The translations under genes and the position numbers were made by a program. A stretch of DNA of 60,609 bases, counting the filler, from Jimgerdemannia flammicorona (taxonomy: Eukaryota), in the NCBI GenBank assembly GCA_003990765.1. It is 3 parts of 3 records of this genome, joined end to end, with 100 filler letters (N's around TTAATTAATTAA, not from the genome) between each part and the next. Parts side by side here need not be neighbours in the genome. Positions count along the whole stretch, not along the records: positions 40,480 to 60,609 come from RBNJ01001752.1; 2 more parts are not named here. One strand, given 5' to 3'. Every line of letters starts with the position of its first letter. Within the stretch, counting starts at the first letter, position 1. Below the pieces are notes generated by a model. It had not been told where the DNA came from, did no database searches, and worked only from the letters and a program-made list of their open reading frames with translations. Below, one piece after another: positions 3,852-60,609 of the stretch.

Positions 3852-3854
3852 TTT

Positions 3855-20746: not shown

Positions 20747-20978
20747 TGAAGGAGGTGGCCAACATTGCCGAATTGGGCAGAGGTGTGTTTGTTTGTGTTT
20801 GTGAAATTGTGAAATGTGGGTCACATGACCTTTGTTTATACAACAAAAAAATAATTGAGAAGGGGGGTATTTATACCCAATGAGAAGCTTGGCTAATCAA
20901 GGTGACTGCTTTATTAATTTGGAATAGCTTCAGACTGTAAAGCCGAGTCTTGCCAAATGGAGAAATTATGTGAGTGGC
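20747..20978 (-). mobile_element. Telomeric LINE copy 0 (5' UTR and ORF1 start only)
   Basis: Matches the 5' ends of the other copies (...ATGTGAGTGGC on +). Confidence 0.85.
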
Positions 20979-31227: not shown

Positions 31228-31238
31228 TTAGGGTTAGG
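31228..31238 (+). repeat. Telomeric linker TTAGGGTTAGG
   Basis: Junction of copies 2 and 3. Confidence 0.9.
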
Positions 31239-36270: not shown

Positions 36271-36294
36271 TAGTGCTCTGAATGAATGGAGTTG

Positions 36295-37482: not shown

Positions 37483-37596
37483 ATACTTATCTCGGTCCCT
37501 CAGATCAGGGCTCAGTTCCATTGGAAAGGAGAGTTCAAAGTTACCCAAGTTCAACCATGTCCGGCATCTGATCAAATAGAGAAATTCAAGGGCAAG

Positions 37597-40350: not shown

Positions 40351-40379
40351 ATCTATTGGCTTTTTTTTTTTTTTTAAAA

Positions 40380-40479
40380 NNNNNNNNNNNNNNNNNNNNN
40401 NNNNNNNNNNNNNNNNNNNNNNNTTAATTAATTAANNNNNNNNNNNNNNNNNNNNNNNNNNNNNNNNNNNNNNNNNNNN
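40380..40479. other. Assembly linker (N44-TTAATTAATTAA-N44)
   Basis: Identical artificial pad. Confidence 0.95.
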
Positions 40480-42048: not shown

Positions 42049-42065
42049 TTAGGATTAGAGTTAGA
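42049..42065 (+). repeat. Fossil telomeric linker TTAGGATTAGAGTTAGA
   Basis: G>A-decayed TTAGGGTTAGGGTTAGG, followed by CTTTAAGTAA (= CTTCAAGTAA). Confidence 0.75.
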
Positions 42066-43120
42066 CTTTAAGTAATAATTTATTTATTATAAAATAAATA
42101 ATGAAATAAATAATATAACTACCAAAGATGAGAAATACAAAATGAGATCTGTAAAGTAAACAACTAGCTAAGAAAAACTAAATAGAGATCAGCAAGGTGA
42201 ATATTTTAAAAAGAGAGCTAGATAAATTATTCATTATAACTATAGAAAAAATAAAGATACAGAAATCAAAAATAAAAGAAACTAAGTTAAAATATATAAA
42301 TATTTAATTGTAATAGTAAGAAATATATTAACAACTAATCACCAATCAACTGATAATTCATTATAATTTCAATAATAAGAAAAATTATTTAGAATATATA
42401 TATAAGAGAAGAAAAAACAATAAATAATATTACAATCACTCAATTATCAAAATATTTTTATAATTTAAGTTAGATAAAAACTATTTACAAGATAGCTATC
42501 AGAATTATATATATATATTATTAATAGTATAATAGTTTGTCTTGTGAAAAATATAAAAAGAGTAAGCTTTAAATTCTAATAATTATTATTTATCAGTAAA
42601 CTAGTCTAATTATTTATGACTAGATTTATCTTTTCAGATAGAATATAAATTATTAAAAAAACTACACTTTTAAAGATAGCTATAATAGAATTAATCTTCA
42701 TAAAGACAGATATAGAGTTGGTCAAAATAGTTATAATACTAGATAAGTATAGATTATATAAACTAGAGAGAGAAGATAAGAATATAATAAGCTTTTTACA
42801 ACTATAAGTAGCTATGAGACATAATATATCAAACAAGTCTCTAGAAAGAGAAGACTTATTTTTATAATAACTGATCTTACAAAAATGTCAAGAAAAAGAA
42901 ATAGAACCATTATAACCTATAAAAATATTTATATCAATTAAGAAAGTTAAACTAAGAAGTCTAAGAGTCTTACTAAAGATTAACTTAAGAACTTTAATAC
43001 TAAAAACTCTAATTTAGTAGCAGAATAGAAGCTTAAAAAAAAAAATTATACTTTAACTTAGATCTAATGAAAGTACAAATAATGATCAGCTTTTAATAAT
43101 AACTAGAGAGAACTATAGAT
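42066..43120 (-). mobile_element. Hypermutated AT-rich 3' part of a related telomeric LINE
   Basis: Retains AAGTAAACAACTAGCTAAGAA and colinear blocks of the 3' UTR and ORF2 C-terminus; cut by the LTR at 43121. Confidence 0.78.
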
Positions 43121-43585
43121 TGTAATGTAGTAGATACTTACTCTTGAAAATATGTCAGATTTTTGTATCTTGAATACTTGATCTTCTCTGACTCCTCAGA
43201 GTCCTTAGGATGTAGAGGTAGATGAGTTCAAAGTATATCTGCCTGCAGACCTACTCATTCTTTTGCTATCTCTTTGCTTTTGAACTATTTGATCTGAGGT
43301 TTATTCACTCTAAGATACTGGGTTATTTATACATGTTTTGCTAACTATAAGATAGCTAAGTAATGGCTCATTTCACAAGTGCTGAATCTTTTAACATCTG
43401 CTAAGATTTCACTGATTGTGAAGATTCTAATATCTCCTAAATCTTTACAAACATTAAAGTTTCTGCACTTTGTGGAATATAGCTGCTATTTATGAGGCTA
43501 AGCTATATTGGGAATTGGATTCAGGTACTGTAATCAAATGTCTAATTTCCCTGTTTTATGTTACTAATTCGGATCAGCTGTCACA
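43121..43585 (-). repeat. 3' LTR of the second gypsy (465 bp)
   Basis: Minus strand TGTGAC...CATTACA after PPT AGGAGGAAGA; carries the shared TATAAATAACCC...AGAGTGAATAAACCTCAG core. Confidence 0.82.
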
Positions 43586-43626
43586 TCTTCCTCCTAAATA
43601 GGTGATTCATCTCAGGAGTATTCTAT

Positions 43627-44088
43627 TCACTCGAATTCCCAGGCTTTTACAATTTGTATTTCCTTATACTGTGCAATTTGTATCATTACATCCTTCCAAT
43701 ATTGTCTCTTGACATATCCAAAGTCTCCTGGAGTTACTCCTCGGAAATAGGCTAAGGCTAACTCATCATCTTTGAATAACTTGTGCACTCTTTTTGCAAT
43801 TGTGATCTGAGTATAAGAGAGCTGACATTCTCTGATCCAGTCTTCTTTTCCCATCTTTGGTCTTGAATTTAGTAGCTGTCCCAACTTGAAGTATTCCTGA
43901 AACTCAGTTCGGTTCTGATAGGCCTTGAAATGTAAGATTCATGATAAGTGTGTTTGTACTATACTCTGGATGCCATCAAAGGATTCTTCTATTGTTGGTG
44001 ACTCAGTAGAACACCACTGTCTTTCAATGGCTTGCTGGGCCATACTAGTAATTCTGAGAGCAGTTGTATTACTTTGTTGACTAGTCAT
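43627..44088 (-). pseudogene. Extra ORF between integrase and PPT, similar to the LTR-encoded ORF
   Basis: 154 codons with one internal stop. QEYFKLGQLL...AKRVHKLF...LALAYFRGVTPG versus DYEIGHHL...ALRVHQIF...WAIAHLQGVTAG. Confidence 0.62.
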
Positions 44089-46753
44089 AATACTTCTTGA
44101 GTTAGTTTCAATAGATGATAGTAGAGATGATTGTGCCTGAGAGTTTTCATAGCCAAAAGATAGTTCCTTTTATATCTTACACAAGGTAAGATCCTTCTCA
44201 CCTAGACTCCAGTTTTTGTGACCACAAGGCTTCTACCATATTCTGATACACTAGGACTTTATCTCCTATCTTGATAATCTCCAGGGGTTTGTGGGTTTTT
44301 TCTGCATTCTTCCTTTGTAGTGCCTATATCTTTGTTATGTAATCCTCAGTCTTCTTCCTGATTTAGTGTAGTCTCCATATTTCTCTATCCTATGTTTCTA
44401 TACAACATCTCTATTGGATGATAGGGTTTCTTGAGAACTTTCTTCTCCAAACAACATTTCTCGAGGAGTAAAGTGGGTACTTTGTGATCTGATATCTTAG
44501 AGAGCAGATAATGCTATTAGTAGATAGTGATCCCAGTTTTCATAGTTATTACAGATCTTAGCAATAACATTCTTGAGGACCTTGTTGGTCATTTCTACTT
44601 GTTCATTTCCTTGAGGGTGATAGGTTGTAGTCTGAATGTACTGGATCTTGTACTTCTTGTAGAGAACTTCAAAGAACTGATTCACAAATTCTGTTCCTCT
44701 ATCTGTAGTTACTTGCATTGGGGTCTTGAACTGGCAGATGATTTCTTTGTGAAAGAAATTGGCGATTGACTATGTATTGGCTTCCTTGAAGGGTCCTGCT
44801 TCTATCTACTTCATAAAAAAGTCTATGATGATAATGATATATTGGTTACCAGTCAGGGTCAAGGGAAGAGGGCCAATTACATCTATTGCTATGTGGGCAA
44901 ATGGTACTGGTTCTATATATACTAATCCTGGGGCTTGGTTTTATTGGTCTTGTTTCTATTTCTGGCATTTGTCACAGGTTTTGACAAATTGTCTGCTATC
45001 TTTCTCTATTTCTGGCCACCATATCATTCTTCTTGCCTTATCATATATATTCATTCCTCCTAGATAGTTAAGTTCATATACTGATTTCATTGTTTACTCC
45101 TTCTTATATTCTAATATGACTAGTTGTTTTCCTTTCTTCAGTATTTATCCATCAGTTTCAAATTGTTTCTATGTTCTGTTGATAATCATTTGCATCCATT
45201 CTTCCAGATGTTGGGGCATCTTTCGCTGTCCTAGATATGTGATGATTCTATAGTAGAGCTCCTTATTCATAATTGATTTGTTAGTTGGAGGTGTTTTGAG
45301 GTATCCATGAGAGAGTATTTGCATTGAAATTTGTTCTTCCAGAGTGGTGTACAATGGTTACATCATAGGCTTGTAACTTTATTATCTATCTAGCAAAGAT
45401 TTCTTTGAGTTGTCTAGTTGTTAGTAGCTAGGTGAGAGCTGAGTAGTCCATCTGAATAGTGAAGTGTCTTTCAGCCAGATAGTAGTGGAACTTTTCTACA
45501 GCCCAGATGATTGCAAGGCATTCCAACTTATAGGATTCATATTCTTTTTCAGCTCCTTAGATTCCTCGGCTTAGATATGTAATGATATACTCTTTTTTGT
45601 CTTCCTTTTAAGCTAGAACTACTCCTAATCCTTATTTAGTTGCGTCTGTCTGAAGGATAAACTCTTGGGTCTAATTGGGTCATCTAAGGATGGGTGCCTG
45701 AGTCAGTCTGACCTTGAGTTCATCAAATGCTTTTTGTTGTCTACTAGTCCAGTTGAATTTAGTATCCTTCTTGTTGAGTTCATAGATTGGATGTGCAATA
45801 TTGGAGAATCCTCTAATAAATCTATGATAGTAGGAGGTAAGTTCCATGAAGGCTTGGGCTTCTATAATAGTAGTGGGCCTTGGGTATGCTGCTACTGCTT
45901 GTATCTTGAGTGGGTCTATATGCATTCCATCTTGATTGATAATATGACCAAGATAGGAGATCTAGATTTCTGCAAATTTACATTTCTTAGGCTTGATATA
46001 TAGGCCATGCTTTCTCAGTCTTTCAATTATCTGCCATATATACTACAGGTATTCCTCAGGTATCTTGCTGTAGATGATTATGTCATCGAGAATTATCCAT
46101 CTTCCTATGTTATAGCAGAAGATTTTGTTCATCATTCGATGAAAGCTTACTGGTACATTGCACATTCTGAATGGCATTCATAGGTAGATGTAGATTCTTT
46201 CTGGGATGATGAAGGCTGACTTTTCACTAGCCATCTCTGTAAGTCTGATTTGGTGAAATCCTGAGTATAAGTCCAAGGTGCAATAGTACTGTTCTTCATC
46301 TCCCAGTGTTATAAAGATGTCACTAATGAGGGGCAGTGGTTGGCAATCCTTCTTGGTAACTGCATTGAGCTTTCTGTAATCAACACAGAGTCTTGGGGTG
46401 AATTTTCCAGATTTGCTTCCTTTTTTCATAGCTAGTACAACTGGTGAAGACCAGGGACTGCTGGCTTCTTTGATAATACCAACTTCTTCCATTTGCTTGA
46501 TTTCTTCTCTAAGTTATTCTTGGTAGGCAGATGGGACAGATCTTGCCTTCTGGTAAATTGGTTTGGTGTCTCCAGTATCTACCTCATGATAGTAGTATGG
46601 GGTCTTTCCCTTTATATCCTTAAAATCCATGACAAGAATATTCTCAAATTTGTAGAGAATTTTCTGAGGTCCTCCTTGAGTGGGAATTCATTTCCAATAG
46701 TGTAACTGTACTTATTTGTGATTTCCTCCTTCATATGCTCCAGTTTAGTGATC

Positions 46754-46787
46754 TAGGGTTAGGGTTAGGGTTAGGGTTAGGGTTAGG
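46754..46787 (+). repeat. Interstitial telomere tract (~5.7 TTAGGG)
   Basis: Perfect repeats fused to broken gypsy pol. Confidence 0.95.
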
Positions 46788-47182
46788 CTTCAAGTAAGAA
46801 TTTATTCATTGTAGAGAAGAAAAGGTACATCGGAGCAACAAAAGACAAAGACTCCTAAGATGAGAAAAGCAAAACAAGGCCAGCGAAGTAAACAATTAGC
46901 TAAGAAGTACAAAACAAAGGCCAGAGAGGTGACCACCATAAGGACAGGCTGGATAAAACCATTTTGTTACAGCCATAAAGATAATAAATGCAAAAAGCAA
47001 GCAAAGGGAGGGCTAAGATATAATATACATTCGCTTGGTGCCAACTACAGGAACCGTATCAACAACTACAATACCAAATGACTGATATGAGATGAATAAC
47101 TCAATGTACTCTCAATAATGGGGGAACCAACTGAGGCAAATGAGGGGAAAGAAAGGAGTAAAGAAAATATGCAATCACTTGA

Positions 47183-50100
47183 TCACCCAAGCATCTTCAT
47201 AATCTCGGTCAGGCAGAACCTGACCATGAGATTGCCACCAGAATTACATATAGTATCGATAGCATGGTAGGCTGTCTTGTCAAGAGCATAAAGAGGGTAG
47301 GCGCAAAGTTCTTCCTGCCATTCGTCATTGGTAAATCAGTCAAGCTGTTCATCTCGATCTGAAGAACCTCGAAAAGCCGAATATGAACCATCGAGAAGAC
47401 TGTACCTGAGGAGATGGCCACGATGAAACTTGTCTCTACAGGAGCAGGAGTGGGGTTGGCCAAAGTAGCTATAGTGCCAGGCGAGGGCAGAACACACAAG
47501 CTGGGGGGGGAAGGAAAGGACGCGGTCAGTGCCCTGCAACCATAAGCAGCCTTTGGGGGTGATATACAGAATGAGAGCCTGGGAGGAGGAGGCCCATTCC
47601 TGCAGTAGTTGATCCTGGAGGAAGGACTAGAGGAAGGAGCGGAGCAAGCGAGTCTTGTGGACCTGGGGACAGAGGTCCCAGTACAAGTCGAGGAAGTCAA
47701 GCCAAGAGGTCCAATGCTGGAACTTGTCAATAATAGAACTCAGAGGATGCATAATGAAGCGCTCGCTAAGGGGGATGATGGAGTTGTTGCCAGACTTGCC
47801 ATATCAATCCAGATGGGCTTGGAACATACAGCAGAGGTCGGACATACGATGAAGGAAGGAAGAGAGGCCAAGAATCAAACTGCCAAGCAAGGGACGGCTG
47901 GAAAATCCAACCGCCCAAGTGACAGCATCATCAAAGACCTGCTTGGGACGCTTCATCATCTGAAGCCCCATGGTAGTAGCTGGACAGGAAGCTTGTAGAA
48001 GGGGAAGGCCGTATTCCAGCTGAGGCCTGATGAATATTCGTACGATGGCCAGCTTGACCATTGGCGACCAGAGGGGACCACGGGTGCAGCAGAAACCAAG
48101 AGTACGTTCCACCTTCGCCGCATTCTGCAACGCCAGGTTGACAAAGTCGAACCCTTTGCTGGTGTATGGCACGCCCAGGTATATGTAGGAGGTGGGTCGC
48201 AGGCAGGGTTCACCCCCAATCAGCACAGTACAGTCAGCCGGACCAACATAACTACACTTCTTGGGATTGAGCTCCATACCATTCACCCGGAGCCAATCCT
48301 CACAGAAATCAACCATCCTTTGCCCTTCCGTGGCAGTGCAGGGGGTAAGGGTGATGTCATCAGCAAAGAAAAGCCCGAGGGGGAAGTTGTACTCCTTGAA
48401 CTGCTCATCAAAGGAGGCGGTGAGGGGATTAATAAAGACATCAATCAGCCAAGGGGAGAGGAGGGAGCCCTGGAAGAGGCCGTGCTCAGTGGGGACCGAA
48501 GGGGTGATAAGGCCATTAACAACCACCTGATAGGAACAGTAATTGAACAGGTTTCAGATAATGCTAAGGAGGGCTGCATCGGCACCTCATGCCTCAAGGC
48601 GAGAAAGAATGCACTTGAGGGGGACTCGATCATATGCCTGCTGGAGGTCCAAAAAGACACGGCGGCCCCATCCCTTGGCCCATGTCTCATGTGATAACAA
48701 GACATGGGATAGGGACAAGAAGCGGGTTCGGAAGCTACCTTGGCAGTGCGACATTTCTGTCAGGCCACTTCGGCTCTTGACGTATCCTTCCAAACACCAC
48801 TCGAAGAGTCTATGAAATATTTCAGTCAGAGCAATAGGGCAAAATCCATCGATCGTTCGCGATTTCTCCTTCTTGGGGACTGGGGTGATTATGGCTGAGC
48901 TCCAGCAGTGTGGAGTGAGCCCCCAGACCACACACATCTGGAAGAAGAATGAAAGAGCCTTCGAAAGGCTACAGGGGGCGTCCTTCTCACCTGCCATCAC
49001 CTGAAGGATCCGGACATGCAAGGAGTCGGCACCACATGCCTTTGAGAGGGGGTAGCTGTGGACAGCCCTCCAAACTGTAGGTTGCTCAAACCAAGACTGC
49101 AGCTCAAGAGCACCCATGCTGAGGGGGAAGACATCCTCAGAGTCGTCGAGGTGGAGGGAGGCATCCGGTTGGCCGAAGATGGTGGTAAAGTGAGCAACCA
49201 CGTCATCGAACACTGGGACATTGGGTGAGCGAGATTGGAGGGGTGCGGAGGGGGCGGAGCGATACGCTCGCTTGAAACCACAGATAGCATCAGAGACCGA
49301 AGATGCACTGTGAAGAAGGTCCTGCCTGGGGAGCGGTGCTGCCCTGATTTCTCTTGTGTCATATGAGCCAAGAATGTCCTCACAGACTGACTATAGACCA
49401 GAGGTCAAAAGGGCATCAAGAGAATCCACAAACTGCTGGCGATCTTCCACAGAGCGAAAGCTGGCAATGTAGTCTCTGACAGAGTAGATGGATCTGACAA
49501 CGGTATCACAAATGATATCCGCTGTTTCCCGAAGATGAGCTTGAATGACTGGGTCGATCAGGTATCTCGCAAAGTAACAACGGATGCCAGCCAAGGCAGC
49601 AACTGGCAAGGGAGAGAAGGGGAAGGAGACGGTGAGGAGAGAGGGGTGATCGGTAGCGACAGGAGGGGTGGAGCAGGTGAGGGATGCATGGAGGGATATG
49701 GTGGCGAACGCGTGGTCAACGTGTGTGGATCCAGCCACCAGGGTCAGGTGGTTCAACGACCACATCATCAAGGAGGTGTCGATGACATCCATCCGGTTAC
49801 GAGGACCAGAGTTGACATCACCAAGGTGAGCACCGAAGCAGGTATTGATGTCACCGATCAGAAGGGCCTTACCTGGGAAGGGTCCAGACACCAAGTCACA
49901 GAAGCCACCAATGGGAAGAGAGAGGGGGGTGTAAACCCTAACCAAAGCCAAGCCCTGGAATATAAGCCAGATATGGAAGGGGTTGGCGAAGGACCCAGAA
50001 ATGAGGGGGGTGAAGCGGTTTGACACAAGAACCACGAGACCACCATTCTGGTGACCCATGATCCTGTGTGACACCGGAGGAGAGGACATGTGAATGAGTG

Positions 50101-50230
50101 GAGAGGGATGCAGTGGAATGTGCCACATTTCACATACAAAAAGAATGTTGAGGGCAGGACCAATCAACCGACTGAGCACATCGAACTTGTCCTGAGGTAG
50201 TCCGTGTGCATTGAGGAACCTGACTCTCAT
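47183..50230 (-). pseudogene. ORF2 (~1015 aa): APE endonuclease, RT, CCHC-like knuckle
   Basis: FLNAHGL, VCEMW, IGDINT, HVDHAF, TDH; KACGADSL, FLDLQQAYDRVP, GLFQGSLLSP, LFFADD, YIYLGVP; CSCRDKFHRGHLLR. The ATG overlaps the ORF1 stop (ATGA). Confidence 0.9.
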
Positions 50231-51726
50231 TGTGGGCCAGGCATGTTAGTGCCAACAGCGTGGGAAGCACCTGAGGCGGAAGCTTCGGCTTCCAAATCCA
50301 TCGCCATATCACCCGTCACAGCCACAGTACTACCTGCCTTCGAAGTAGGGCCAGCCAACGGGGAGGCGGGGGAGGGGAGAGCGAGGCCGAGTTCCGCGGC
50401 CCATGCCCTGAAGAAGGTCTGCACCTCGGACCTCTTTGCAGTGGCTTCGCCTGCCAACTGCCGGACCTGGGCATGGAAAGATTGGAGTACCCATGTCTTT
50501 ACGGCCTTCATAGCGTTCTTGTTGCGTGGGAGCGCGGGGTCCCAGGCCGACAGCACCGAGAACCCGAGCACCTTCATCTTCTTTTGGAATGCCGTAACAT
50601 AATCAGGGCGGAGCAGGAAGTCGATGGTCGATACCGAAACATACGACATATTGAGAACCTTTGAAAACATCACATGGACATTGTACAAGTTCTTCTGGAT
50701 CTGCCCGATCTTGAGATGGGCAAATCCGTCGATGTAGACATGCTGCAGCCTAGCGCCCTTTTTAGTCAGTGATAAATGGGAGGTCGGCTTGTGGGTCATG
50801 CATGAAAGGGTAGCAGCGGCAGCTGCTCTTTCCGTCTCGGAGTAGGCCTGAGTCCTATCCTTGATAGAGACCTTCTTGGTGGTGGTGGCGTAAGATTTAG
50901 GGGGAGTGGGGGCCGAAGCAGGGGACGAAGACGGACTGGCGGCGCTGGGTCCTACAGGCGTAACCTGGGGTACTGGCCTGGGAGCCTTGGCCTTGCCCTT
51001 TTTAGTGGGCATGGCTTTAGCGGCCCAAGGCACAGCCGTGGGAGTTATCTCCTTGGGTGGCGCACCAGACTGCAATGCAGCGGCTTTAGTGGCCCGCTTG
51101 TCCGCTTGCTTCTGGGCCTTCAACTGCGTGTTCATGGCAGGACCAGTAGGAGGGGGGGCTGAGGACTTGGAGGGGGCGGATGTGGAAGGGGTGGCGGGGA
51201 TACTTCCCAAAGGAGCACCAGATGACAAGGGGGCAGTGGGCGCATGTTACGCAGCAAGCTGCACCATGAGCTGGGTGTTGATCTTGGCCAGTTTGGCCAC
51301 TTGAGTCAGCAGATCCGAGATCTGCTTCCTCATCATGGCCATCTCTGTGACCAGAACGGGGTCAGCTGAGGGGCCTGTACGACCAGCCATCGGGGTCATT
51401 CCCAAACTAGTGTTCGGGTAACCATGCTTGTTCCGATTGAGGGGCGGGGGCGTGGGAGAGTAGGGGGGGTGCTGGATATCGTAGTCCGAATCGGAAGAGA
51501 TTGTGATCTCTTCGTCATCTTCTGCATCGCGCAGAGAAGATAAATACGATGAAATTGGTCGTGCATCCCCGCACGACCTGCACATCACCGTGAGGCTACC
51601 CTCGCCAAAGCCGAGAGAGAGAAGAACGACGCTGCGACACTCAGCACAGCGAAGAGAGGTGCCAAAGCGCGCGAAGAGATGGGTGGCGTTGCCATCATCA
51701 CCAACGACAGAGGAGGTGGCTGATAT
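50227..51726 (-). pseudogene. ORF1 (~499 aa): C4 motif, coiled coil, Pro/Ser/Lys linker, conserved C-terminal domain
   Basis: ORFs 51247-51804 and 50227-51228 share a frame. The start codon is ATG in copies 0, 1 and 3 (ATA here). CAECR...MCRSC; RKQISDLLTQVAKLAKINTQL. Confidence 0.8.
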
Positions 51727-51938
51727 TGCCGAAATAGGCGGAGGTGTGTTTGTTTGTATTTGTGAAATTGTGAAATGCAGGTCATGTGACCTTGGTTTGT
51801 GCAACGAAAAAATAATGGAGAAGGGGAGTATTTATACCCGATGAGAGGCTTAGCTAATCAAAGTGACAGCTTTTTTTATTTAGAATAGCTTCGGGCCATA
51901 AAGCCGAGTCTAGCCAAATGGGGAAACATGTGAGTGGC

Positions 51939-51949
51939 TTAGGGTTAGG
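51939..51949 (+). repeat. Telomeric linker TTAGGGTTAGG
   Basis: Junction of copies 4 and 5. Confidence 0.92.
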
Positions 51950-54900
51950 CTTCAAGTAAGAATTTATTTATTGTAGAGAAGACAGGGTACATCAGAGCAA
52001 CAAAAGACAAAGACTCCTAAGATGAGAAAAGCAAAACAAGGCCAGCGAAGTAAACAACCAGCTAAGAAGTACAAAACAAAGGCCAGAGAGGTGACCACCC
52101 TATGGATGGGCTGGATAAAACCATTTTGTCATGGCCATAGAGATAATAAATACAAAAAGCAAAGAATGGGAAGGCTAAGATATATTACACATTTGCCCGG
52201 TGCCAACTACATGAACCATATCGACACCCAAACACCAAACAGCTGACATGAGATGAATAACTTAATGCACTCTCAACAACGGGGGGAACCAACCAGGCAA
52301 ATGAGGGGAAGGATAGAAGTAAAGAAAATGTGTGATCGCTCGATCACCCAAACATCTTCATAATCTCGGTCAGGCAAAATCCAACCGCGAGGTGGACACC
52401 AGAATTACACATGGCATCTATAGCGCGATAGGCTGTCTCGTGAAGAGCATGAAGAGGGTAGGCACGAAGTTCCTCCTGCCAATCGTTATTAGTAAACTAG
52501 TCGAGCTGTTCATCTCAATCTGAAGAACCTCGAAAAGCCGAATAAGAACCGTCGAGAAGACCGCACCTGAGGAGATGGCCACAATGAAACTTATCTCCAC
52601 AGGGGCAGGGGTGGGGTTGGCCAAAGTAGCCATAGCACCAGGCGAGGGCAGAACGCACAAGCCGGGGGGAGAAGGAAAGGACGTGATCGGTACCCCTCGA
52701 CTGCAAGCAGCCTTTGGGGGTGATATACCAAATGAGAGCCTGGGAGGAGGAGGCCCATTCCTGCAGCAGCTGATCCCGAAGGAAGGACTGGAGAAAGGAG
52801 CGGAGCGAGCGAGTCTTGCGGACCTGGGGACGGAGATCCCAGTACCAGTCAAGGAAGTCAAGCCAAGAGGTCCAATGCTCGAACTTGTCAATAATAGAAC
52901 CCGGGGGATGCGTGACAAAACGCTCGCTAAGAGGACTGATAGGGTTGTTGTCTGACTTGCTACACCAATCCAGGTGGGCTTGGAACATGCAGCAGAGGTC
53001 AGACATGCGACGAAGGAAGGAAGGGAGGCCAAGAATCGAGCTGCCAAGCAAGGGACAGCCAGAAAATCCAACCGCCCAAGCGACAGCATCATCAAAGACC
53101 TGCTTGAGACACTTCAATACCTGAAGCCCCGTGGTAGTAGCCAGACAGGAAGCACATAGGAGGGGGAGGCCATATTCCAGCTGAGGCCTGAAGAATGTTT
53201 GTACAATGGCCAACTTGACCATTGGCGACCAGAGGGGACCACGAGCATAGCAGAACCCAAGAGTTCATTCCGCCTTTGCTGCATTCTGCAATGCAAGGTT
53301 GACAAAGTCAAACCCTTTATTGGTGTACGGCATGCCCAGGTATACATAGGAGGTAGGTCGAGGGCAGGGTTCGCCCCCAATCAGTATAGTACAGTCAGCT
53401 AGGCCAACATAATCACACTTCTTGGGATTGAGCTCCATACCATTCACCCAAAGCCAATTCTCACAGAAATCAACCATCCTCTGCCCTTCCACGGCAGTGT
53501 GGGGGGTGAGGGCAATGTCATCAGTAAAGAAAAGCCCGAGGGGGAAGTCGTACTCCTTGAACTGCTCATCAAAGGAGGCAGCGAGGGGGTTGATAAAGAC
53601 ATCAAATAGCCAGGGGGAGAGGAGGGAGCCCTGGAAGAGGCCGCGCTCAGTGGGGACCGAAGGGGTGATGAGACCATTGACAACCACCTAATAAGAACAG
53701 TGATTAAATAGGCTTCGGATAATGCTAAGGAGGGCTGCATCGGCACCTTGTGCCTCAAGGCAGGAAAGAATGCACTTGAGGGAGACTTGGTCGTATGCCT
53801 GCTGGAGGTCCAGGAAGACACGGCGGCCCCATCCCTTGGCCCACGTCTCGTGCGATAGCAAGACATGAGAAATGGACGAGAAGTGGGTTCGGAAGCCACC
53901 TTGGCAGCGCGACATTTCTGTCAGGCTGCTTCAGCTCTTGATATATCCTTCCAAACACCGCTCGAGATTCTACGAAACATTTCAGTCAGAGCAATAGGGC
54001 GAAATCCATCAATCATACGTGATTCCTCCTTCTTGGGGACTGGGGTGATGATGGCTGAGTTCCAGTGGCGGGGAGTGAGCCCCCAGATCATGCACATCTG
54101 GAAGAAGAACGAGAGAGCCTTCGAAAGGCTATAGGGGGCATCCTTCTCACCTGCCATCACCTGAAGGATCCGGACATGCAAGGAGTCGGCACTGCATGCC
54201 TTTGAGAGGGGGTAGCTGTGGACAGCCCTCCAAACTGCAGGTTGGTCAAACCAAGACTGCAGCCCAAGAGCGCCCACGCTGAGGGGGAAGACATCTTCTG
54301 AGTCATCGAGACGGAGGGAGGCATCCGGTTGGCCGAAGATAGTGGTAAAGTAGGCAACTACATCATTGAACACTGGGACATTGGGGGAGCAGGACTGAAG
54401 GGGTGTGGAGGGGGTGGAGCAGTACACTAGCTTAAAGCCACGAATGGCATCTGAGACCGAGGATGCACTGCGAAGGAGGTCTCACCTAGAGAGTGGCATG
54501 GCTCTGATTTCTCTTGCGTCATATGAGCCAAGAATGTCCTCACAGACAGACTGTAGACCAGAGGTCAAAAGAGCATCAAGGGAATCCACAAACTGCTGGC
54601 GATCATCCACAGAGCAAAAGCCGGTGATGTGGTCCCTAACAGAGTAGATAGATCTGATAACAGTATTACAAATGATATCTGCTGATTCCCGAAGGTGAGC
54701 TTGAACGACCAGATCAGTCAGATATCTCGCAGAGTAATAACAGACGCCAGCCAAGGTAGCAACTGGCGAGGGGGAGAAGAGAAAGGAGACAGTGAGGAGG
54801 GAAGGGTGGTCGGTAGTGACAGGAGGGGTGGAGAAGGTGAGGGATGTGTGGAGGGACGCAGTGGCGAATGCATGATCAACGCATATAGAATCAGCCACCA

Positions 54901-56702
54901 GGGTCAGGTGGTTCAATGACCACATCATCAGGGAGGTGTCAACGACATCCATCCAATCGCGAGGACCAGAGTTGACGTCACCAAGGCAGGCACCAAAGTG
55001 GGTTTTGATTTCACCAATCAAAAGGGCCTTACCCGGGAAGGGTCCAGACACCAGATCACGGAAGCCACCAATGGGAAGAGAGGGGGGGGCGTAAACCACA
55101 ACCAAAGCCAAGTCCTGGAACATGAGCCGGATATAGAAGGGGTCGGTGGAGGACCTGAAAATGAGGGGGGCAAAACAGTTTGACACAAGGACTATGAGAC
55201 CACCATTCTGGTTGCCCACGATCCTGTGCGACGCCGGAGGGGAGGCCATGTAGATGAGCGGAGAGGGACATAGCGGAATGTGCCATGTTTCACATATGAA
55301 AAGAACATTGAGAGCAGGACCAATCAACCGACTGAGCACATTGAACTTGTCCTGGGGTAGTCTGTGTGTATTGAGGAACCTGACTCTCATTGTGGGCTGG
55401 GTGTGTTAGCGCCAACAGCGTGGGATGCACCTGAGGTAGAAGCTTCAGCTTCCAAATCCATCACCATTTCACCCATCATGGCCACAGTACCACCTGCCTT
55501 CGAAGCAGGGCCGGCCAGCGGGGAGGCGGAGGAGGGGAGAGTGAGGCCAAGTTCCGCGGCCCAAGCTCGGTAGAAGGTCTGCACCTCGGGCCTCTTTGCA
55601 GTGGCCTCACCTGCCAACTGCCGGACTCGAGCATGGAATGATTGGAGTATCCGTGTCTTCATGGCCTCTATGGCATTCTTGTTGTGTGAGAGCGCAGGGT
55701 CCCAGGCCAACAGCACCGAGAACCTGAGCACCTTCATCTTCTTTTGGAATGCCATGACATAATCAGGATGGAGCAGGAATTCGATGGTCGATGCTGAGAC
55801 ATACGACATGTTGAGAACTTTTGACAACATCACATGGACGTCATACAAGTTCTTCCGGATCTGCCCGTTCTTTAAATGGGCAAATCTGTCAACATAAACA
55901 TACTGCAGCCTAGTGCCCTTCTCAGTCGGCAACAAATGAGAGGTTGGCTTAAGAGTCATGCGCGAAAGGGTGGTAGCTGCAGCTGCCCTTTCCGTCTTAG
56001 GGTAGGCCTGGGTCCTATCCTTGATAGAGACCTTTTTAGTGGCGGCGGCATACAATTTGGGAGAGGCGGGGGTCGAAGCAGTGGACAAAGATGGACTGGT
56101 GGTGCTGGGTCCCACAGGCGAAACCTGGGGCACTGGCCCGGGAGCCTTGGCCTTACCCTTTTTAGAGGGCACAGCTTTAGCGGCCAGAGGCACAGCCGTG
56201 GGAGTTACCTCCTTTGATGGTGCACCAGACTGCGACGAGGCGGCTTTAGCGCCCCACTTGTCCACTCACTTCTGGGCCTTCGACTGTGTGTTCACGGCAA
56301 GACCAGTAGGAGGGGGGGCCAAGGACTTGGGGGGGGCGGATGTAGAAGAGGCGGCAGGGGTACTTCCTGAACGAGTACCAGATGACAAGTGGGCGGTGGG
56401 CATATGATGTGCAGCAAGCTGCGCCATCAGCTGGGCATTGATCTTGGCCAGTTCGGTCACCTGGTTAGCAGATCTGAGATCTGCTTCCTCATCGCGGCCA
56501 TCTCTGTGACCAGATCAGGGCCGGCTGAGGGGCCTGCACGACCGGCCATCGGGGTCATTTCCAAACTAGTGTTCGGGCGACCACGCTTGTTCCGATTGAG
56601 GGGCGGTGGCATCGGAGAGTAGGGGGGCGCTGGGCATCATGGTCTGAATCGGAAGAGATCGCAATCTCTTCGTCATCTTCCGCATCGCGCAGGGAAGATA
56701 AA
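51950..56702 (-). mobile_element. Telomeric LINE copy 5 (5'-truncated within ORF1)
   Basis: Homology ends at GGGAAGATAAA, then telomeric repeats follow. Confidence 0.93.
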
Positions 56703-56729
56703 GGGTTAGGGGTTAGGGTTAGGGTTAGG
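56703..56729 (+). repeat. Interstitial telomere tract GGGTTAGGGGTTAGGGTTAGGGTTAGG
   Basis: Caps truncated copy 5 and precedes the copy 6 3' end. Confidence 0.93.
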
Positions 56730-57969
56730 TTTCAAGTAAAAATTTATTCATTGTAGAGAAGATAAGGTACATTGGAGCAACAAAAGACAAAGACTCCTAA
56801 GATGAAAAAAGCAAAACAAGGCCAGCAAAGTAAACAACTAGCTAAGAAGTACAAAACAAAGACCAAAGAGATGTCCACCCTATAGACAGGCTGGATAAAA
56901 CCATTTTGTTACGGCCGTAAAGATAAAAATGCAAAAGCAAGGAAAGGAAGGCTAAGATAAAATACACATTCACCCGGCGCCAACTACATGAACCGTATCA
57001 TTAACTAAACTCCAAATGACTGATATGAGATGAATAACTCAATGCACTCTCAACAACGGGGGGAACCAACCAAGGCGAATGAGGGGAAAGAAGGAAATAA
57101 AGAAAATGTGCGATCACTCGATCACCCAAGCATCTTCGTAATCTTGGTCAGGCAGGACCCGACTGCGAGATGGCTACCAGAATTACACATGGCGTCTATG
57201 GCATGGTAGGCTGTCTCGTGAAGAGTGTGAAGAGGGTAGGCACGAAGTTCCTCCTGCCATTCGTCATTGGTAAACCAGTCGAGCTGTTCATCTCGATCTG
57301 AAGAACCTTGGAAAGCAGAATATGAACCGTTGAGAAGACCGCACCTGAGAAGATGGCCACGATGAAACTTATCTCTACAGGGGCAGAGGCGGGGTTGGCC
57401 AAAGTAGCCATAGCGCCAGGCAAGGGCAGAATGCACAAGCTGGGGGGGGAAGGAGAGGACACGATCGCGCCCCGCAACCGCAAGCGGCCTTTGGGGGTGA
57501 TGTATCGAACGAGAGTCTGGAAGAGGAGGCCCATTCCTGTAGCAGCTGATCCCGAAGAAAGGACTGGAGGAAGGAGCGGAGTGAGCGAGTCTTGCAGACC
57601 AGGGGACAGAGGTCTCAGTACCAGTCGAGGAAGTCAAGCCAAGAGGTCCAATACCGGAAATTGTCAATGATAGAACCCGGGGGACACATGACAAAGTGCT
57701 CGCTAAGAGGGCCGATAGGGTTGTTGCCCAACTTGCTACACCAATCCAGATGGGCTTGGAACATGTAGCAGAGATCAGATGTATGACGAAGGAAGGAAGG
57801 GAGGCCAAGAATCGAGCTGCCAAGCAGGGGATGGCCAGAGAACCCCGCCTAAGCGACAGCATCATCAAAGATCTGCTTGGGACACTTCAACACCTGAAGC
57901 CCTGTGGTAGTAGCCAGACAGGAAGCACATAGGAGGGGAAGGCCATATTCCAGCTGAGGCCTGATGAAT

Positions 57970-58005
<36 letters not shown>

Positions 58006-60483
58006 TTTTTGTTTTCTTTTTTTTTTTTTTTTTTTTTTTTTATAGTCACTTGGACTGCCCTTTATTACCGATCTATTCTATATACTTACAACAGGCCTGA
58101 TGAATGTTCGTATGATGGCCAACTTGACCATTGGTGACCAGAGAGGACCATGGGCATGGCAGAACCCAAGGGTCCGGTCCACCTTTGCCGCATTCTGCAA
58201 CGCAAGGTTGACAAAGTCAAACCCTTTGTTGGTGTATAGCATGCCCAAGTACACATAGGAGGTGGGTCGCGGGCAGGGTTCGCCCCCAATCAGCATAGTA
58301 CAGTCAGCCGGGCCGACATAACCACACTTCTTGGGGTTGAGCTCCATATCGTTCACCCAAAGTCAATCTTCACAGAAATCAACCATTCTTTGCCCTTCCG
58401 CGGCAGTGCAGGGGGTAAGGGCGATATCATCAGCAAAGAAAAGCCTGAGGGGGAAGTTGTACTCCTTGAACTGCTCATCAAAGGAGGCGGCGAGGGGGTC
58501 AATGAAAACATCAAACAGCCAGGGAGAGAAGAGGGAGCCTTGGAAAAGGCCGCGCTCAGTGGGGACCGAAGGGGTGACGAGGCCATTAACAACTACCTGA
58601 TAAGAACAGTGATTGAACAGGCTCCGGATAATGCTAAGGAGGGCCACATCGGCACCTCGCGCCTCAAGGCGAGAAAGAATACACTTGAGGGGAACTCGAT
58701 CATATGCCTGCCAGAGGTCCAAAAAGATATGGCGGCCCCATCCCTTGGCCCACGTCTCGTGTGAAAGCAAGACATAAGATAGGGATGAGAAGTGGGTTCG
58801 GAAGCCATCTTGGCAGCGCAACATTTCTGTCAGGCTGCCACTGCTCTTGACGTATCCTTCCAAACACCGCTCGAAGAGTCTACGAAACATTTCAGTCAGA
58901 GCAATAGGGCAAAATCCATCGATCGTTTGCAATTCCTCCTTCTTGGGGACCGGGGTGATGATGGCTGAGTTCCAGCAGTGGGGAGTGAGCCCCCAGACTA
59001 CGCACATCTGGAAGAAGAATGAGAGGGCCTTTGAAAGGCTACAGGGGGCGTCCTTCTTACCTGCCATCACCCAAAGGATCTGGACATGCAAGGAGTCAGC
59101 GCCACACGCCTTTGAGAGGGGGTAGCTGTGGATAGCCCTCCAAACTGCAGGTTGGTCAAATGAAGACTGCAGCCCAAGAGCATCCACACTGAGGGGGAAG
59201 ACGTCTTCAGAGTCATCGAGGCGGAGGGAAGCATCTGGCTGACTGAAGATAGTAGTAAAGTGAGCCACCACATCATCAAACACTGGGACATTGGGGGAGC
59301 GGGACTGGAGGGGGGCAGAGGGGGTGGAGCAATACGCTCGCTTAAAACCACGAATGGTATCAGAGACTGAGGATGTACTGCGGAGGAGGTCTCACCTAGG
59401 GAGCGGCGCTGCTCTAATCTCTCTTACGTCATATGAGCCCAGAATATCCTCACAGACAGACTGTAGACCAGAGGTCAAAAGAGCATCAAGGGAATCCACA
59501 AACTGCTGGCGATTATCCACGGAGCGAAAGCCAGCAATGTGGTCCTTAACAGAGTAAATAGACCTGATAACAGTATCGCAAACGATATCCGCTGATTCCT
59601 GAAGGTGGGCTTGGATGACCGGGTCAGTCAGGTATTTCGCAGAGTAACGACAGACGCCAGCCAGGGCAGCAACTGGCGAGGGGGAGAAGGGAAAGGAGAC
59701 GGTGAGGAGGGAGGGGTGATCGGTAGTGACAGGAGGGGTGGAGCAGGTGAGGGACGCATGGAGGGACGTGGTGGCAAACGCATGATCAATGCATGTGGAT
59801 CCAGCCACCGGGGTCAGGTGGTTCAATGACCACGTCATTAAGGAGGTGTCGACGACATCCATCCGATCGCGGGGACCAGAGTTGACGTCACCAAGGTGGG
59901 CACCGAAGCGGGTATTGATGTCACCGATCAAAAGGGCCTTACCCAGGAAGGGTCCAGACACAAGATCATGGAAGCCACCAATGGGAAGAGAAGGGGGAGC
60001 ATAAACCCCGACCAAAGCCAGGTCCTGGAACTTGAGCCGGATATGGAAGGGGTCGGCGGAGGATCCAGAAATAAGGCAGGCAAAACAGTTTGACACGAGG
60101 ACCACGAGACCACTATTCTGGTGACCCACGATCCTGTGCGACGCCGGAGGAGAGGACATGTGAATGAGCGGAGAGGGACACAGCGGAATGTGCCACGTTT
60201 CACATACAAAAAGAACGTCGAGGGTAGGACCAATCAACTGACTGAGTATATCGAACTTGTCCTGGGGCAGTCCATGTGCATTGAGGAACCTAACTCTCAT
60301 TGGGGGCCAGGCGCGTTAGCACCAACAATATAGGAAGCACCCAAGGTAGAAGCTTCAGCTTCCAAATCTATCGCCATTTCATCTGACATGGCTACAGTAC
60401 CACCTGCCTTCAAAGCAGGGCCGGCCGTCAGGGAGGCAGAGGAGGGGAGAGCGAGGCCAAGTTCCGCAGCCCAAGCTCTATAG
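56730..60483 (-). mobile_element. Telomeric LINE copy 6 (terminal, truncated in ORF1, carries a poly(A) insert)
   Basis: ORF2 60300 to 57122; ORF1 tail ends at CCAAGCTCTATAG, where the telomere starts. Confidence 0.93.
57971..58092 (-). mobile_element. 5'-truncated poly(A) retroposon insert with a 14-bp TSD
   Basis: ~70-nt T-rich tail plus ~50 nt carrying AATAAA on the minus strand; AGGCCTGATGAATG duplicated at 57957-57970 and 58093-58106. Confidence 0.9.
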
Positions 60484-60609
60484 GGTTAGGGTTAGGGTTA
60501 GGGTTAGGGGTAGGGTTAGGGTTAGGGGTAGGGTTAGGGTTAGGGTTAGGGTTAGGGTTAGGGTTAGGGTTAGGGTTAGGGTTAGGGTTAGGGTTAGGGT
60601 TAGGGTTAG
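60481..60609 (+). repeat. Terminal telomere (TTAGGG)n
   Basis: ~21 repeats running to the sequence end, G-strand 5'->3' outward; GTAGGG variants at 60510 and 60528. Confidence 0.95.

Follow-up and report, generated by a model that had tools for sequence, protein, structure and literature searches.

We analysed a 60,609-nucleotide stretch of Jimgerdemannia flammicorona DNA (assembly GCA_003990765.1; three parts joined end to end, filler included), called the window below, in which a two-ORF non-LTR retrotransposon of ~5.15 kb is found next to telomere repeats. Copies c4–c6 lie on the minus strand at 46788–60479 and reach a terminal (TTAGGG)~21 tract, the G-strand of which runs 5' to 3' up to the final base of the window. 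A second array of the same LINE, c0–c3, occupies 20750–36272, also on the minus strand and with the same polarity. A BLAST search of the whole window with copy 4 detected c1–c6 and the fragment c0. Together with the hypermutated relic listed below, this makes seven LINE copies and one fragment, on the minus strand throughout and with their 5' ends facing the chromosome end. This search and the reading of the borders confirmed the two arrays proposed in the initial annotation. The features are listed here.

20750..20977, minus: copy c0, first ~230–240 nt only
20979–20994: degenerate telomere tract, 16 nt, between c0 and c1
20995..26074, minus: copy c1, full length
26076–26093: telomere tract, 18 nt, between c1 and c2
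26094..31227, minus: copy c2, full length
31228–31238: telomere tract, 11 nt, between c2 and c3
31239..36272, minus: copy c3, 5'-truncated at ~117
42049..42567, minus: hypermutated relic of a further copy (BLAST pieces 42061–42200 and 42421–42567)
46753..46787, plus: seed telomere tract, 35 nt, ~5.8 units, joining a degraded LTR-retrotransposon remnant to the c4 3' end
46788..51937, minus: copy c4, full length, ~5.15 kb
51939..51949, plus: interstitial telomere tract, 11 nt, TTAGGGTTAGG, between the c4 5' end and the c5 3' end
51950..56702, minus: copy c5, 5'-truncated at ~407
52563..52607, minus: C-terminal CCHC motif (CPCGDKFHCGHLLRC) in ORF2 of c5, from translation
56703..56729, plus: interstitial telomere tract, 27 nt, between the truncated c5 5' end and the c6 3' end
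56730..60479, minus: copy c6, truncated at ~1542 inside ORF1/ORF2, with a 123-bp foreign insert, capped directly by the terminal telomere
57971..58093, minus: the 123-bp insert in c6, tail of a 5'-truncated poly(A) retroelement
58375..58941, minus: RT domain in c6, N-terminal part of Pfam RVT_1 (E 7.9e-11; residues 151–339 of ORF 58363–59391)
59611..60300, minus: predicted APE/EEP endonuclease domain, ORF2 N-terminus in c6, 230 residues modelled
60480..60609, plus: terminal telomere tract, ~130 nt, ~21 TTAGGG units including two GGGGTAGGG variants

By comparison with copy 4, c1, c2 and c4 are full length, while c3, c5 and c6 begin at element positions 117, 407 and 1542. In c4, pieces of ORF1 (50227–51831) and ORF2 (47209–50245) can be followed, AATAAA lies 13 nt ahead of the 3' end and TATAAATA ~108 nt from the 5' end; an additional non-telomeric C (51938) stands beside the c4/c5 tract. 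The 5' end of c3, at 36272, adjoins non-telomeric DNA and is read for this reason as the border of an internalised relic. Between the two arrays, the 10.5-kb block 36273–46752 consists of other transposon remnants and the hypermutated relic, in which degenerate telomere units (TTAGGATTAGAGTTAGA, 42049–42065) precede a LINE 3' end starting at 42066. Another, poly(A) retroelement, which ends at 20748, cuts c0 at 20750, and the same element forms the insert in c6, where it is flanked by a 13-bp target-site duplication (GGCCTGATGAATG, 57958–57970 and 58094–58106). An RNase H piece of the neighbouring LTR element matches wasp, spider and oomycete retroelements, a mixture that carries no information on the host. 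G-quadruplex motifs give no signal (0–1 per LINE copy), and an Rfam scan of the whole window returned no family at gathering score.

Telomere junctions and decay of the copies

The (TTAGGG)3 motif occurs 14 times in the window and never in 100 shuffles. At all six complete 3' ends the plus strand reads ...TTAGG/CTTCAAG (the slash marks the junction), and the relic at 42066–42567 brings to 7/7 the visible 3' ends that join telomere repeats in this one phase; none of these seven lies in other sequence. The claim of the initial annotation that every visible 3' end abuts TTAGGG repeats is therefore borne out, and so is the uniform polarity that it reported: the 5' end is distal, all window copies are oriented alike with respect to the repeat strand, and the LINE sense strand runs on from the C-strand, a polarity shared with TRAS, MoTeR and HeT-A. 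The anatomy of the copies, their polarity and the phase of their junctions are direct observations. The telomere tracts at the 3' ends measure 11, 11, 16, 18, 27 and 35 nt, and such differing lengths fit separate insertions rather than one duplicated unit. No poly(A), a trait of the R1 clade, is present at the 3' junctions, where the 3' UTRs pass straight into CCTAACCC... with no A-run. At three of four full-length 5' ends an extra G separates the element from CCCTAA. We did not adopt a cap-derived origin for this G, as the same G precedes 5'-truncated copies in relatives, where it may be templated.

None of the copies has intact ORFs. Each carries 4–13 stops in the ORF2 frame, arising mostly from CpG-biased C>T/G>A changes. 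All copies of the window are dead and show no present activity. Over 3,584 shared columns, differences per kb amount to 145 (c1), 135 (c2), 131 (c3), 111 (c4), 108.5 (c5) and 106 (c6). The mutation load thus declines toward the tip, but the gradient within each array remains inside the confidence intervals and only the difference between arrays is clear; the 10.5-kb block interrupts this age gradient. Pairwise identity among copies ranges from 82 to 88% and each pair shares 7 to 26 derived sites, so that no pair is markedly closer than the others and no recent block duplication is visible.

Coding capacity, endonuclease domain and relatives

Building a consensus of the copies had been proposed as a check, and a transition-aware consensus indeed restored an ORF1 of 455 codons and an ORF2 of 1020 codons that overlap by 16 nt. 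The element has the features of a LINE: variable 5' truncation, absence of LTRs, two ORFs, a C-terminal CCHC and an RT of the non-LTR type. Pfam RVT_1 matches pieces from the window at E 9.5e-13 and 7.9e-11. The best solved-structure match of the RT is L1 ORF2p: the family profile aligns residues 6–771 of human L1 ORF2p at E 4.5e-36, and R2 proteins at ~1e-30. The CCHC pattern, C-x-C-x7-H-x3-C, is also found in relatives. ORF1 has a conserved C-terminal block of ~120 residues and an N-terminal CxxC...C motif but lacks CCHC knuckles; its Pfam search gave no family at E<=0.01 and chance-level matches only at E<=1, and PDB sequences gave no match (best E 0.92).

The N-terminal domain of ORF2 is predicted to adopt the APE/EEP fold, with conserved residues of the catalytic type. 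A model of this domain (pLDDT 68, pTM 0.73) retrieved APE1, L1-EN and R1-EN with Foldseek at E 1e-9 to 1e-8 and probability 1.0, and VIA-align gave Z scores of 19.2 with ExoIII, 18.9 with TRAS1-EN, 18.8 with L1-EN and 18.2 with R1Bm-EN. The family alignment keeps the catalytic-type N, E, Y, D/N, D/H and D/H columns: Y111, D137, N139, D182 and H204 are invariant across 32 family members, and conservation is 90% or higher at N15, E42, H183 and D203. Matches at the level of primary sequence are weak. No Pfam endonuclease family was found in the window's own pieces, Exo_endo_phos was reached by 4 of 13 family members (best E 1.1e-4) and Exo_endo_phos_2 by 2 of 13, a seven-sequence profile of the N-terminal domain alone had 0 hits among PDB sequences at E<=10, and the single-sequence fold of a 307-aa N-terminal piece was unusable (pLDDT 38). 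The APE assignment consequently rests on a medium-confidence model together with motif conservation. Restriction-enzyme-like endonuclease (REL) motifs (CCHC...RHD...E...K/RPD...D/E) are absent from the 32-sequence consensus, in which only ~50 alignment columns follow the CCHC motif. The RVT_1 matches, the APE fold match, the consensus ORFs and the CCHC motif agree with the earlier description of a two-ORF LINE encoding APE, RT and a C-terminal knuckle.

The ORF2 family comprises 143 representatives at E<=1e-30, with a partial Calcarisporiella thermophila protein as the one named relative, which is the basis for calling the element apparently fungal. A FastTree phylogeny of 58 unnamed ORF2s unites the 28 family members in a single clade (support 99) whose sister is P0183/P0184, and so shows the monophyly of the family only. 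We searched 78 metagenome loci (446,820 nt) for the 10-mer CCTAACCCTA, which chance alone would place ~0.4 times on each strand. Of the 78 loci, 19 carry it on the ORF2 sense strand, mostly right behind the 3' UTR, and 2 carry it on the antisense strand; in 15 of the 19 sense-strand loci it lies 65–1,121 nt past the projected ORF2 end. In locus L010, (CCCTAA)15 stands at the very start and caps a 5'-truncated copy without intervening sequence, a copy–tag–copy arrangement occurs in L001, L003, L026 and L035, and 2.5–3.5 telomere units are found in L018, L053 and L035. L020 and L021 lie within contigs of 134 and 90 kb and have a 3' tag of only ~11 nt, with no telomere repeat within ~1 kb of their 5' side, and the sequence available downstream of L007 and L011 contains no tag. 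The same 3' telomere tag is present in distant relatives, which indicates that the association with telomeres is old and widespread, perhaps not universal; targeting may not be strict or universal across the family.

Formation of the arrays

We conclude, with a probability of about 0.8, that the element is a telomere-repeat-targeting, APE-type non-LTR LINE belonging to a large separate ORF2 family, and that it inserts as follows. The need for the endonuclease, the precise place of the nick, the way the RNA ends, the sequence in which the steps took place and a possible gain for the host are all inferred. The element RNA, with AAUAAA 12–20 nt ahead of its end, would probably terminate in about two C-strand units (CCUAACCCUAA). 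The element's own APE domain would most likely nick within double-stranded telomere repeats, and reverse transcription would start from a G-rich strand 3'-OH ending in ...TTAGG. Priming on this 3'-OH would make the cDNA continuous with the G-strand, placing the 3' end of the element centromere-ward and its 5' end tip-ward. Incomplete reverse transcription would account for the 5' truncations. Telomere repeats distal to the insert may persist or be re-added by telomerase, and would be the target of the next copy; serial targeting of this kind would stack the copies head to tail, the younger ones lying distally. The surviving internalised tracts are short (11–35 nt). Hypermutation (C>T/G>A) would later have inactivated the arrays, and breakage and repair of the ends would have reshuffled them, leaving the c0–c3 array interstitial and the relic at 42 kb.

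The endonuclease might be dispensable, if the RNA pairs with the G-overhang of a (short) telomere and RT simply extends the end. The polarity of the copies is exactly that expected from a G-strand 3' end as primer, the tracts between copies are short (11–27 nt), nearly all relatives have a 10–12 nt CCTAACCCTAA tag behind their 3' end, a hint of a templated tag used in pairing, and the terminal copies of the window and of L010 are 5'-truncated and capped directly by telomere repeats. Such priming has likewise been proposed for HeT-A/TART and for the endonuclease-deficient Penelope-like Athena/Coprina, and HeT-A, TART and TAHRE are described as transposing onto ends without nicking, even though an APE domain is conserved in TART and TAHRE (PMC5537684). 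We nevertheless consider this pathway unlikely here. The APE catalytic-type residues vary little or not at all in 32 diverged, mostly intact family members, which implies that nuclease activity is under selection. The seed tract at 46753 (35 nt) corresponds to an insertion ~6 units into a tract, and short tracts have another explanation, as tracts longer than about two units are reported to be unstable in MoTeR arrays (PMC7367193).

Two further readings, both improbable in our view, concern the origin of the arrays and the specificity of insertion. Recombination (break-induced replication, D-loop extension, unequal exchange or subtelomeric capture) rather than repeated retrotransposition could have been the main source of the arrays; processes of this kind are documented at MoTeR telomeric arrays (PMC7367193, PMC8381367), and the 10.5-kb block that parts the two arrays and breaks the age gradient, as well as the non-telomeric 5' border of c3, would fit them. 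However, 5' truncation point and tract length vary between adjacent copies, and no pair stands out by identity (82–88%) or shared derived sites (7–26). Recombination accounts for the rearranged layout, not for the origin of each copy. The second reading holds that the element merely ends in ~11 nt of telomere-like sequence of its own and inserts anywhere, the window being a subtelomeric pile-up. Many relatives have tags that are exactly CCTAACCCTAA, and L020 and L021, in their large contigs, combine an 11-nt tag with non-telomeric flanks. Against this, tracts of the window range from 11 to 35 nt and the terminal one reaches ~130 nt, none of the seven 3' ends lies in other sequence, orientation to the repeat strand is constant, and L010 (15 units) as well as L018, L053 and L035 (2.5–3.5 units) exceed the tag; internal MoTeR relics, as described in PMC8381367, look alike, with a 3' tag and a truncated 5' border. 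Finally, a chimeric assembly of the arrays or of the telomere join is very improbable: the same architecture recurs in independent metagenome contigs, copies 12–18% diverged with distinct junctions are uniquely assemblable, and their identity of 82–88% argues against collapse or duplication artefacts. We retain insertion targeted to telomere repeats as the preferred reading.

Comparison with known telomeric elements

The telomeric LINEs that the literature consulted reports from fungi, MoTeR, FoTeR and Cnl1, are all of the restriction-like-endonuclease type; they are described as one-ORF elements in which a restriction-enzyme-like endonuclease lies C-terminal to the RT, and as grouping with CRE/SLACS (PMC12857005). 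The element of the window resembles MoTeR1/MoTeR2 of Pyricularia oryzae, FoTeR of Fusarium oxysporum and Cnl1 of Cryptococcus in its setting, that of TTAGGG telomeres in telomerase-positive fungi, in its head-to-tail arrays with distal 5' ends and short interstitial TTAGGG tracts, and in its 5'-truncated copies, internal relics with 3' telomere repeats, and decay, which in their case occurs by RIP (PMC7367193, PMC8381367, PMC12857005). MoTeR arrays in particular have distal 5' ends and stable interstitial tracts of at most about two units according to PMC7367193, and internal MoTeR relics retain 3' telomere repeats and have truncated 5' borders according to PMC8381367. Unlike these elements, that of the window has two ORFs, a predicted N-terminal APE-fold endonuclease and no C-terminal REL motifs, and its 5' end is devoid of a variant repeat run (TTCGGG(TTTGGG)n).

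TRAS and SART elements have two ORFs, with APE, RT and CCHC in ORF2, and TRAS1 ends in a poly(A) tail; elements of the Tx1 clade, Tx1-1_ACar among them, encode an APE. TRAS1-EN is among the best fold matches of the modelled domain, tied (Z 18.9) with L1-EN and ExoIII. Unlike TRAS1 and SART1, which are insect elements in a TTAGG repeat, the element of the window uses TTAGGG and lacks poly(A), and its ORF1 is without CCHC knuckles and without Pfam or PDB match. As in TRAS1/SART1 (Bombyx mori, R1 clade), insertion is specific for telomere repeats, and the polarity is that of TRAS, with the sense strand on the C-strand (PMC7265360). The same source describes a poly(A) tail at the 3' end of SART1Bm, and a TRAS1 EN that nicks the G-strand, two to three repeats being enough for recognition; the TRAS1 nick, TT^AGG, differs from the primer end proposed here, ...TTAGG (PMC7265360). 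Tx1-1_ACar, from Anolis carolinensis, is a LINE reported within (TTAGGG)n in a telomerase-positive host (PMC10088271, PMC5537684); compared by description only, it has the same enzyme type and TTAGGG target in a vertebrate.

Athena, Coprina and the Zymoseptoria tritici 'family 4' also have telomere units (1–3) at a 3' end that points away from the telomere; in the account given in PMC4522978 they are exclusively subtelomeric, 3.4–3.5 kb long, described without an endonuclease and thought to prime on the overhang. Unlike the Athena/Coprina PLEs, the present element measures 5.15 kb and has a predicted APE-fold domain and a LINE-type RT nearest to L1 ORF2p. HeT-A, TART and TAHRE of Drosophila likewise form head-to-tail terminal arrays with 3' ends centromere-ward, and TART and TAHRE keep an APE (PMC5537684). 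In Drosophila, however, telomerase repeats are missing and the elements are the telomere, whereas the end of the window is TTAGGG-capped and its copies are separated by TTAGGG. The 'hybrid end-building system' suggested in the initial annotation finds no support: TTAGGG repeats of the ordinary kind (~130 nt) form the tip, every copy here is dead and nothing shows host dependence on the element. The window gives neither a replacement for telomerase nor a partner of it. The interpretation given in the initial annotation holds in part. Our search, confined to the literature, found no APE-type telomere-specific LINE described in fungi, but APE-type LINEs specific for telomere repeats are already known as a class, with TRAS/SART and Tx1-1_ACar. 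In conclusion, the telomere layout matches that of MoTeR/FoTeR and the enzyme type that of TRAS/SART and Tx1-1_ACar.

A broader proposal, which we advance tentatively and hold at somewhat less than even odds, is that a deep, widespread clade of APE-type LINEs specialised on TTAGGG independently of the insect R1, vertebrate Tx1 and fungal REL elements. Its members would end in a telomerase-template-like CCUAACCCUAA tag that registers the RNA on the G-strand, with no poly(A), and their serial insertion and decay would be a leading force in building the subtelomeres of fungi and perhaps of other microbial eukaryotes, the window being one decayed outpost. Telomere-specific retrotransposons are the main model for the 'safe haven' of selfish elements and for the relation between retroelements and telomerase. 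An APE-type family with a MoTeR-like lifestyle, with hundreds of diverged relatives and the 3' tag in many of them, would be a clear convergence, and would give a second, independent system for asking how TTAGGG is recognised by an endonuclease or by an RNA 3' tag. In the window itself, the shaping of chromosome ends by these elements can be followed in stacked arrays, in internalised telomere tracts, in a break that healed within another transposon and in the inward displacement of an older array.

Telomere-joined LINE arrays and their decay

A BLAST search of the window with a 5.17-kb unit (46783-51950) as query detected LINE copies on the minus strand only; the borders of these copies (c0 to c6) were taken directly from the sequence, and a more sensitive BLAST search added a relic.

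LINE copies and terminal telomere in the window
20750-20977, minus: c0, 240-nt 5' fragment
20995-26074, minus: c1, full length
26094-31227, minus: c2, full length
31239-36272, minus: c3, 5'-truncated at element position 117
42061-42567: hypermutated relic copy, within a 26% G+C block
46788-51937, minus: c4, full length
51950-56702, minus: c5, 5'-truncated at element position 407
56730-60479, minus: c6, 5'-truncated at element position 1542
60480-60609, G-rich strand plus: terminal telomere, about 21 TTAGGG units running 5' to 3' to the last base of the window

The terminal tract is oriented as at a true chromosome end. The initial annotation had proposed LINE arrays reaching a TTAGGG end with their 3' ends joined to telomere repeats, and both observations stand: c4-c6 extend up to the terminal tract, and the seven visible 3' ends are all telomere-joined in a constant phase. 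Complete 3' ends read ...TTAGG/CTTCAAG on the plus strand, with the variants TTTCAAG in c6 and CTTTAAG in the relic, where the junction is preceded by TTAGGATTAGAGTTAGA; the short C-strand telomere sequence at the 3' end of the element, CCUAACCCUAA, is referred to below as the tag. Full-length copies start with CCACTCACAT... right behind CCCTAA, one extra G lying between the two in 3/4 cases. No poly(A) is found at the LINE 3' end at the window junctions, and an AATAAA lies 13 nt upstream of this end.

Telomere tracts preceding the 3' ends
c0/c1: 16 nt, degenerate
c1/c2: 18 nt
c2/c3: 11 nt
c4/c5: 11 nt
c5/c6: 27 nt
Other DNA/c4, 46753-46787: 35 nt

The copies were inserted separately, as indicated by their unequal truncation points and by tracts of unequal length. 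The mutation load per kb is lower toward the tip (145, 135 and 131 in c1, c2 and c3; 111, 108.5 and 106 in c4, c5 and c6), and this fall fits the addition of copies on the distal side; it exceeds the confidence intervals between the arrays but not within them. The short surviving tracts fit the stability of MoTeR interstitial tracts, for which PMC7367193 reports that those of three units or more break and that only those of about two units or fewer are stable.

None of the copies is intact. In the frame of the script-computed consensus (C/T columns read as C, G/A columns as G), ORF2 of c1-c6 carries 13, 13, 6, 6, 6 and 4 stops, besides 0-3 frameshifting indels. Transitions, mainly C>T and G>A, make up 87% of the differences between copies, and in c1-c6 changed sites amount to 36% at CpG, 15% at CpA and 10-12% at CpC/CpT. 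Classic RIP in Neurospora is CpA-biased, unlike this strongly CpG-biased decay, for which methylation-driven deamination and an RIP-like process with a CpG preference are both possible causes; the bias may also give a hint of the host lineage. The consensus recovers ORF1 (455 codons) and ORF2 (1020 codons) with a 16-nt overlap. ORF1 matches nothing in Pfam or PDB; two features recur in its relatives, a CxxC...C motif at the N-terminus and a block of about 120 conserved residues at the C-terminus. The C-terminal motif of ORF2, CPCGDKFHCGHLLRC (c5, 52563-52607), is a CCHC knuckle common to the relatives. Full-length copies contain a TATAAATA box about 108 nt from their 5' end (c4, 51829-51836, with equivalents in c0-c2), downstream of the apparent transcript start; the promoter may be internal or, as in HeT-A, may be supplied by the 3' UTR of the neighbouring upstream copy.

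Endonuclease type and proposed insertion mechanism

The assignment of the LINE to the APE type in the initial annotation found no backing from Pfam in the window, but was upheld by fold matches and conserved columns. Pfam searches with the ORF pieces of the window returned RVT_1 (E 9.5e-13 and 7.9e-11) and no other family, hence no endonuclease family in its own copies, while among 13 aligned family members (relatives of ORF2) four match Exo_endo_phos (best E 1.1e-4) and two Exo_endo_phos_2. A seven-sequence profile of the N-terminal 230 residues found no match among PDB sequences. The alignment of the full-length family profile with human L1 ORF2p (E 4.5e-36) starts at residue 6 and extends through the RT, which accounts for most of the score. 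The N-terminal domain was modelled with pLDDT 68 and pTM 0.73 from the seven-sequence alignment (pLDDT 38 from the single sequence), and with this model Foldseek retrieved APE1 and the L1 and R1Bm endonucleases (E 1e-9 to 1e-8, probability 1.0). VIA-align Z scores were all tied, at 19.2 for ExoIII, 18.9 for the TRAS1 endonuclease, 18.8 for the L1 endonuclease and 18.2 for the R1Bm endonuclease. Across 32 ORF2s of the family, the columns that we take to be the catalytic positions of L1/APE1 (N, E, Y, D-x-N, D-H and D-H) either do not vary or are conserved to at least 90%; in the same set, the CCHC motif is followed by about 50 columns, in which nothing similar to a restriction-like endonuclease appears. 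We accept the predicted ORF2 endonuclease as APE type, the evidence from sequence comparison being thin and the fold test clearer.

Since cDNA and G-strand form one continuous strand, the primer would be a G-strand 3'-OH ending in ...TTAGG. Because the phase is constant at 7/7 junctions and most relatives have the same CCTAA start, this end would be defined by a sequence-specific nick, or by registration on the G-strand of an RNA ended by C-strand repeats, perhaps by both together. TRAS1 offers the precedent of a specific G-strand nick by an APE domain: according to PMC7265360 the cut is made at TT^AGG, and two to three repeats are enough for recognition. Priming from a chromosome overhang may instead need no nick, a route put forward in PMC5537684 and PMC4522978 for HeT-A/TART and for Penelope-like elements at telomeres. 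However, the conservation of the putative catalytic residues points away from such priming and favours endonuclease-dependent target-primed reverse transcription.

Surrounding DNA and array history

The 10.5-kb block between the arrays (36273-46752) consists of other transposon remnants, hAT and LTR, and the relic at 42 kb.

Other transposon features in the window
5309-5905, plus: CCHC zinc knuckle of the LTR element at ~2400-13000
7490-8164, plus: dUTPase of the same element
9331-9939, plus: RT-RNase H of the same element
39294-39605, minus: hAT dimerisation domain, in the block 36273-46752
44497-44769, minus: integrase of a degraded LTR element
45680-45961, minus: RNase H of the degraded LTR element
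46178-46513, minus: RT of the degraded LTR element

The degraded LTR element is severed at the 35-nt telomere tract, at 46753. Because the DNA to the left of this position is an LTR retrotransposon, 46753 looks like the site of a break inside the transposon, with telomere addition healing the broken end and the LINE colonising it afterwards. Non-telomeric DNA adjoins the 5' border of c3, and this border, the hAT/LTR block and the more decayed 42-kb relic fit end breakage and repair internalising older arrays, a process that PMC8381367 documents for MoTeR relics.

Other features accompany the arrays. Immediately distal to the truncated c3 border, at 36340-36490, units of ~12 nt (GATTGATCCATCCAGATTGATCC...) are repeated in the manner of a minisatellite. 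Two blocks, 14000-20000 and 42000-44000, are AT-rich (26-30% G+C); in the second lie the hypermutated LINE copy and telomere units degenerated by G>A changes, so that the AT-rich DNA consists, at least in part, of decayed element, and nothing was recognised in 14000-20000. A second retroelement, of poly(A) type, struck the telomeric arrays twice (57958-58106 and 20650-20748): c6 carries a 123-bp 5'-truncated tail between 13-bp target-site duplications GGCCTGATGAATG, and c0 is severed by a homologous tail with a ~23-nt A-run ending at 20748, the two tails aligning as …TAATAAAGGG…AGTCCAAGTRACTAT-An. The degenerate LTR-type retrotransposon at ~2400-13000, on the plus strand, encodes a dUTPase, an uncommon extra in such elements.

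Relatives and comparison with known telomeric LINEs

The closest proteins in a set of 5.8 billion are 33-45% identical and about 900-1360 residues long, are annotated (precomputed Pfam) with RVT_1 alone, and lie on contigs of 3-7 kb, about the size of the element. An exhaustive search with the N-terminal-domain profile gave 143 representatives at E<=1e-30, 446 at E<=1e-10 and 1,475 at E<=1e-3; with the full-length-member profile, E values fall steeply after 24 members (from <=1e-173 to 1e-108). Only one member in the profile search bears an organism name, that of the fungus Calcarisporiella thermophila, and this protein is partial. In a FastTree phylogeny of 58 proteins, built without named-clade references, a single clade (support 99) unites the 28 family members, and its sister group is two APE-bearing proteins.

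Of 78 metagenome loci (446,820 nt in all), 19 carry the 10-mer CCTAACCCTA in the sense of ORF2 and 2 carry it in antisense; chance alone would give about 0.4 occurrences per strand. In 15/19 sense loci it lies 65-1,121 nt past the projected ORF2 end, directly after the 3' UTR, often with AATAAA 12-20 nt upstream. At one locus (L010), which opens with (CCCTAA)15, this tract caps a 5'-truncated copy much as the terminal telomere caps c6, and four others (L001, L003, L026, L035) have a copy-tag-copy layout. ORF1 and ORF2 are both intact in several relatives, hence living members exist elsewhere. Four loci count against a universal telomere association. In L007 and L011, 29-31% identical to the family protein P0004, the tag was not found downstream of ORF2 in the sequence examined, and these loci may represent non-telomeric lineages; L020 and L021, inside contigs of 134 kb and 90 kb, have an 11-nt tag and a 5' side without telomere repeat. 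The place of the tag is taken in L007 by a 3' region that is long, C/T-rich and tandem-like. One group of contigs (L014-L016, L018-L021, L023, L026, L030) holds several diverged lineages side by side (65-87% nucleotide identity) and arrays of extremely 5'-truncated copies, each ending CCTAACCCTAA(G); some of these contigs are 49-134 kb long, with family copies in their interior.

The array layout resembles that of MoTeR/FoTeR. However, MoTeR, FoTeR and Cnl1 have a C-terminal restriction-like endonuclease, absent from the window LINE, and PMC12857005 groups them with CRE/SLACS. Enzyme type and polarity are similar to those of the insect element TRAS, and the target repeat to that of the lizard element Tx1-1_ACar, as described in PMC10088271 and PMC5537684; the LINE differs by the absence of poly(A) and by an unrelated ORF1. 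The papers searched describe no fungal LINE that is both APE-type and telomere-specific. The LINE is real and probably undescribed. The suggestion of a hybrid or new end-building system is not sustained, as the chromosome tip consists of ordinary TTAGGG repeats and every copy in the window is dead. The interest of this LINE lies in convergence and in the size of its family, not in a novel way of making chromosome ends.
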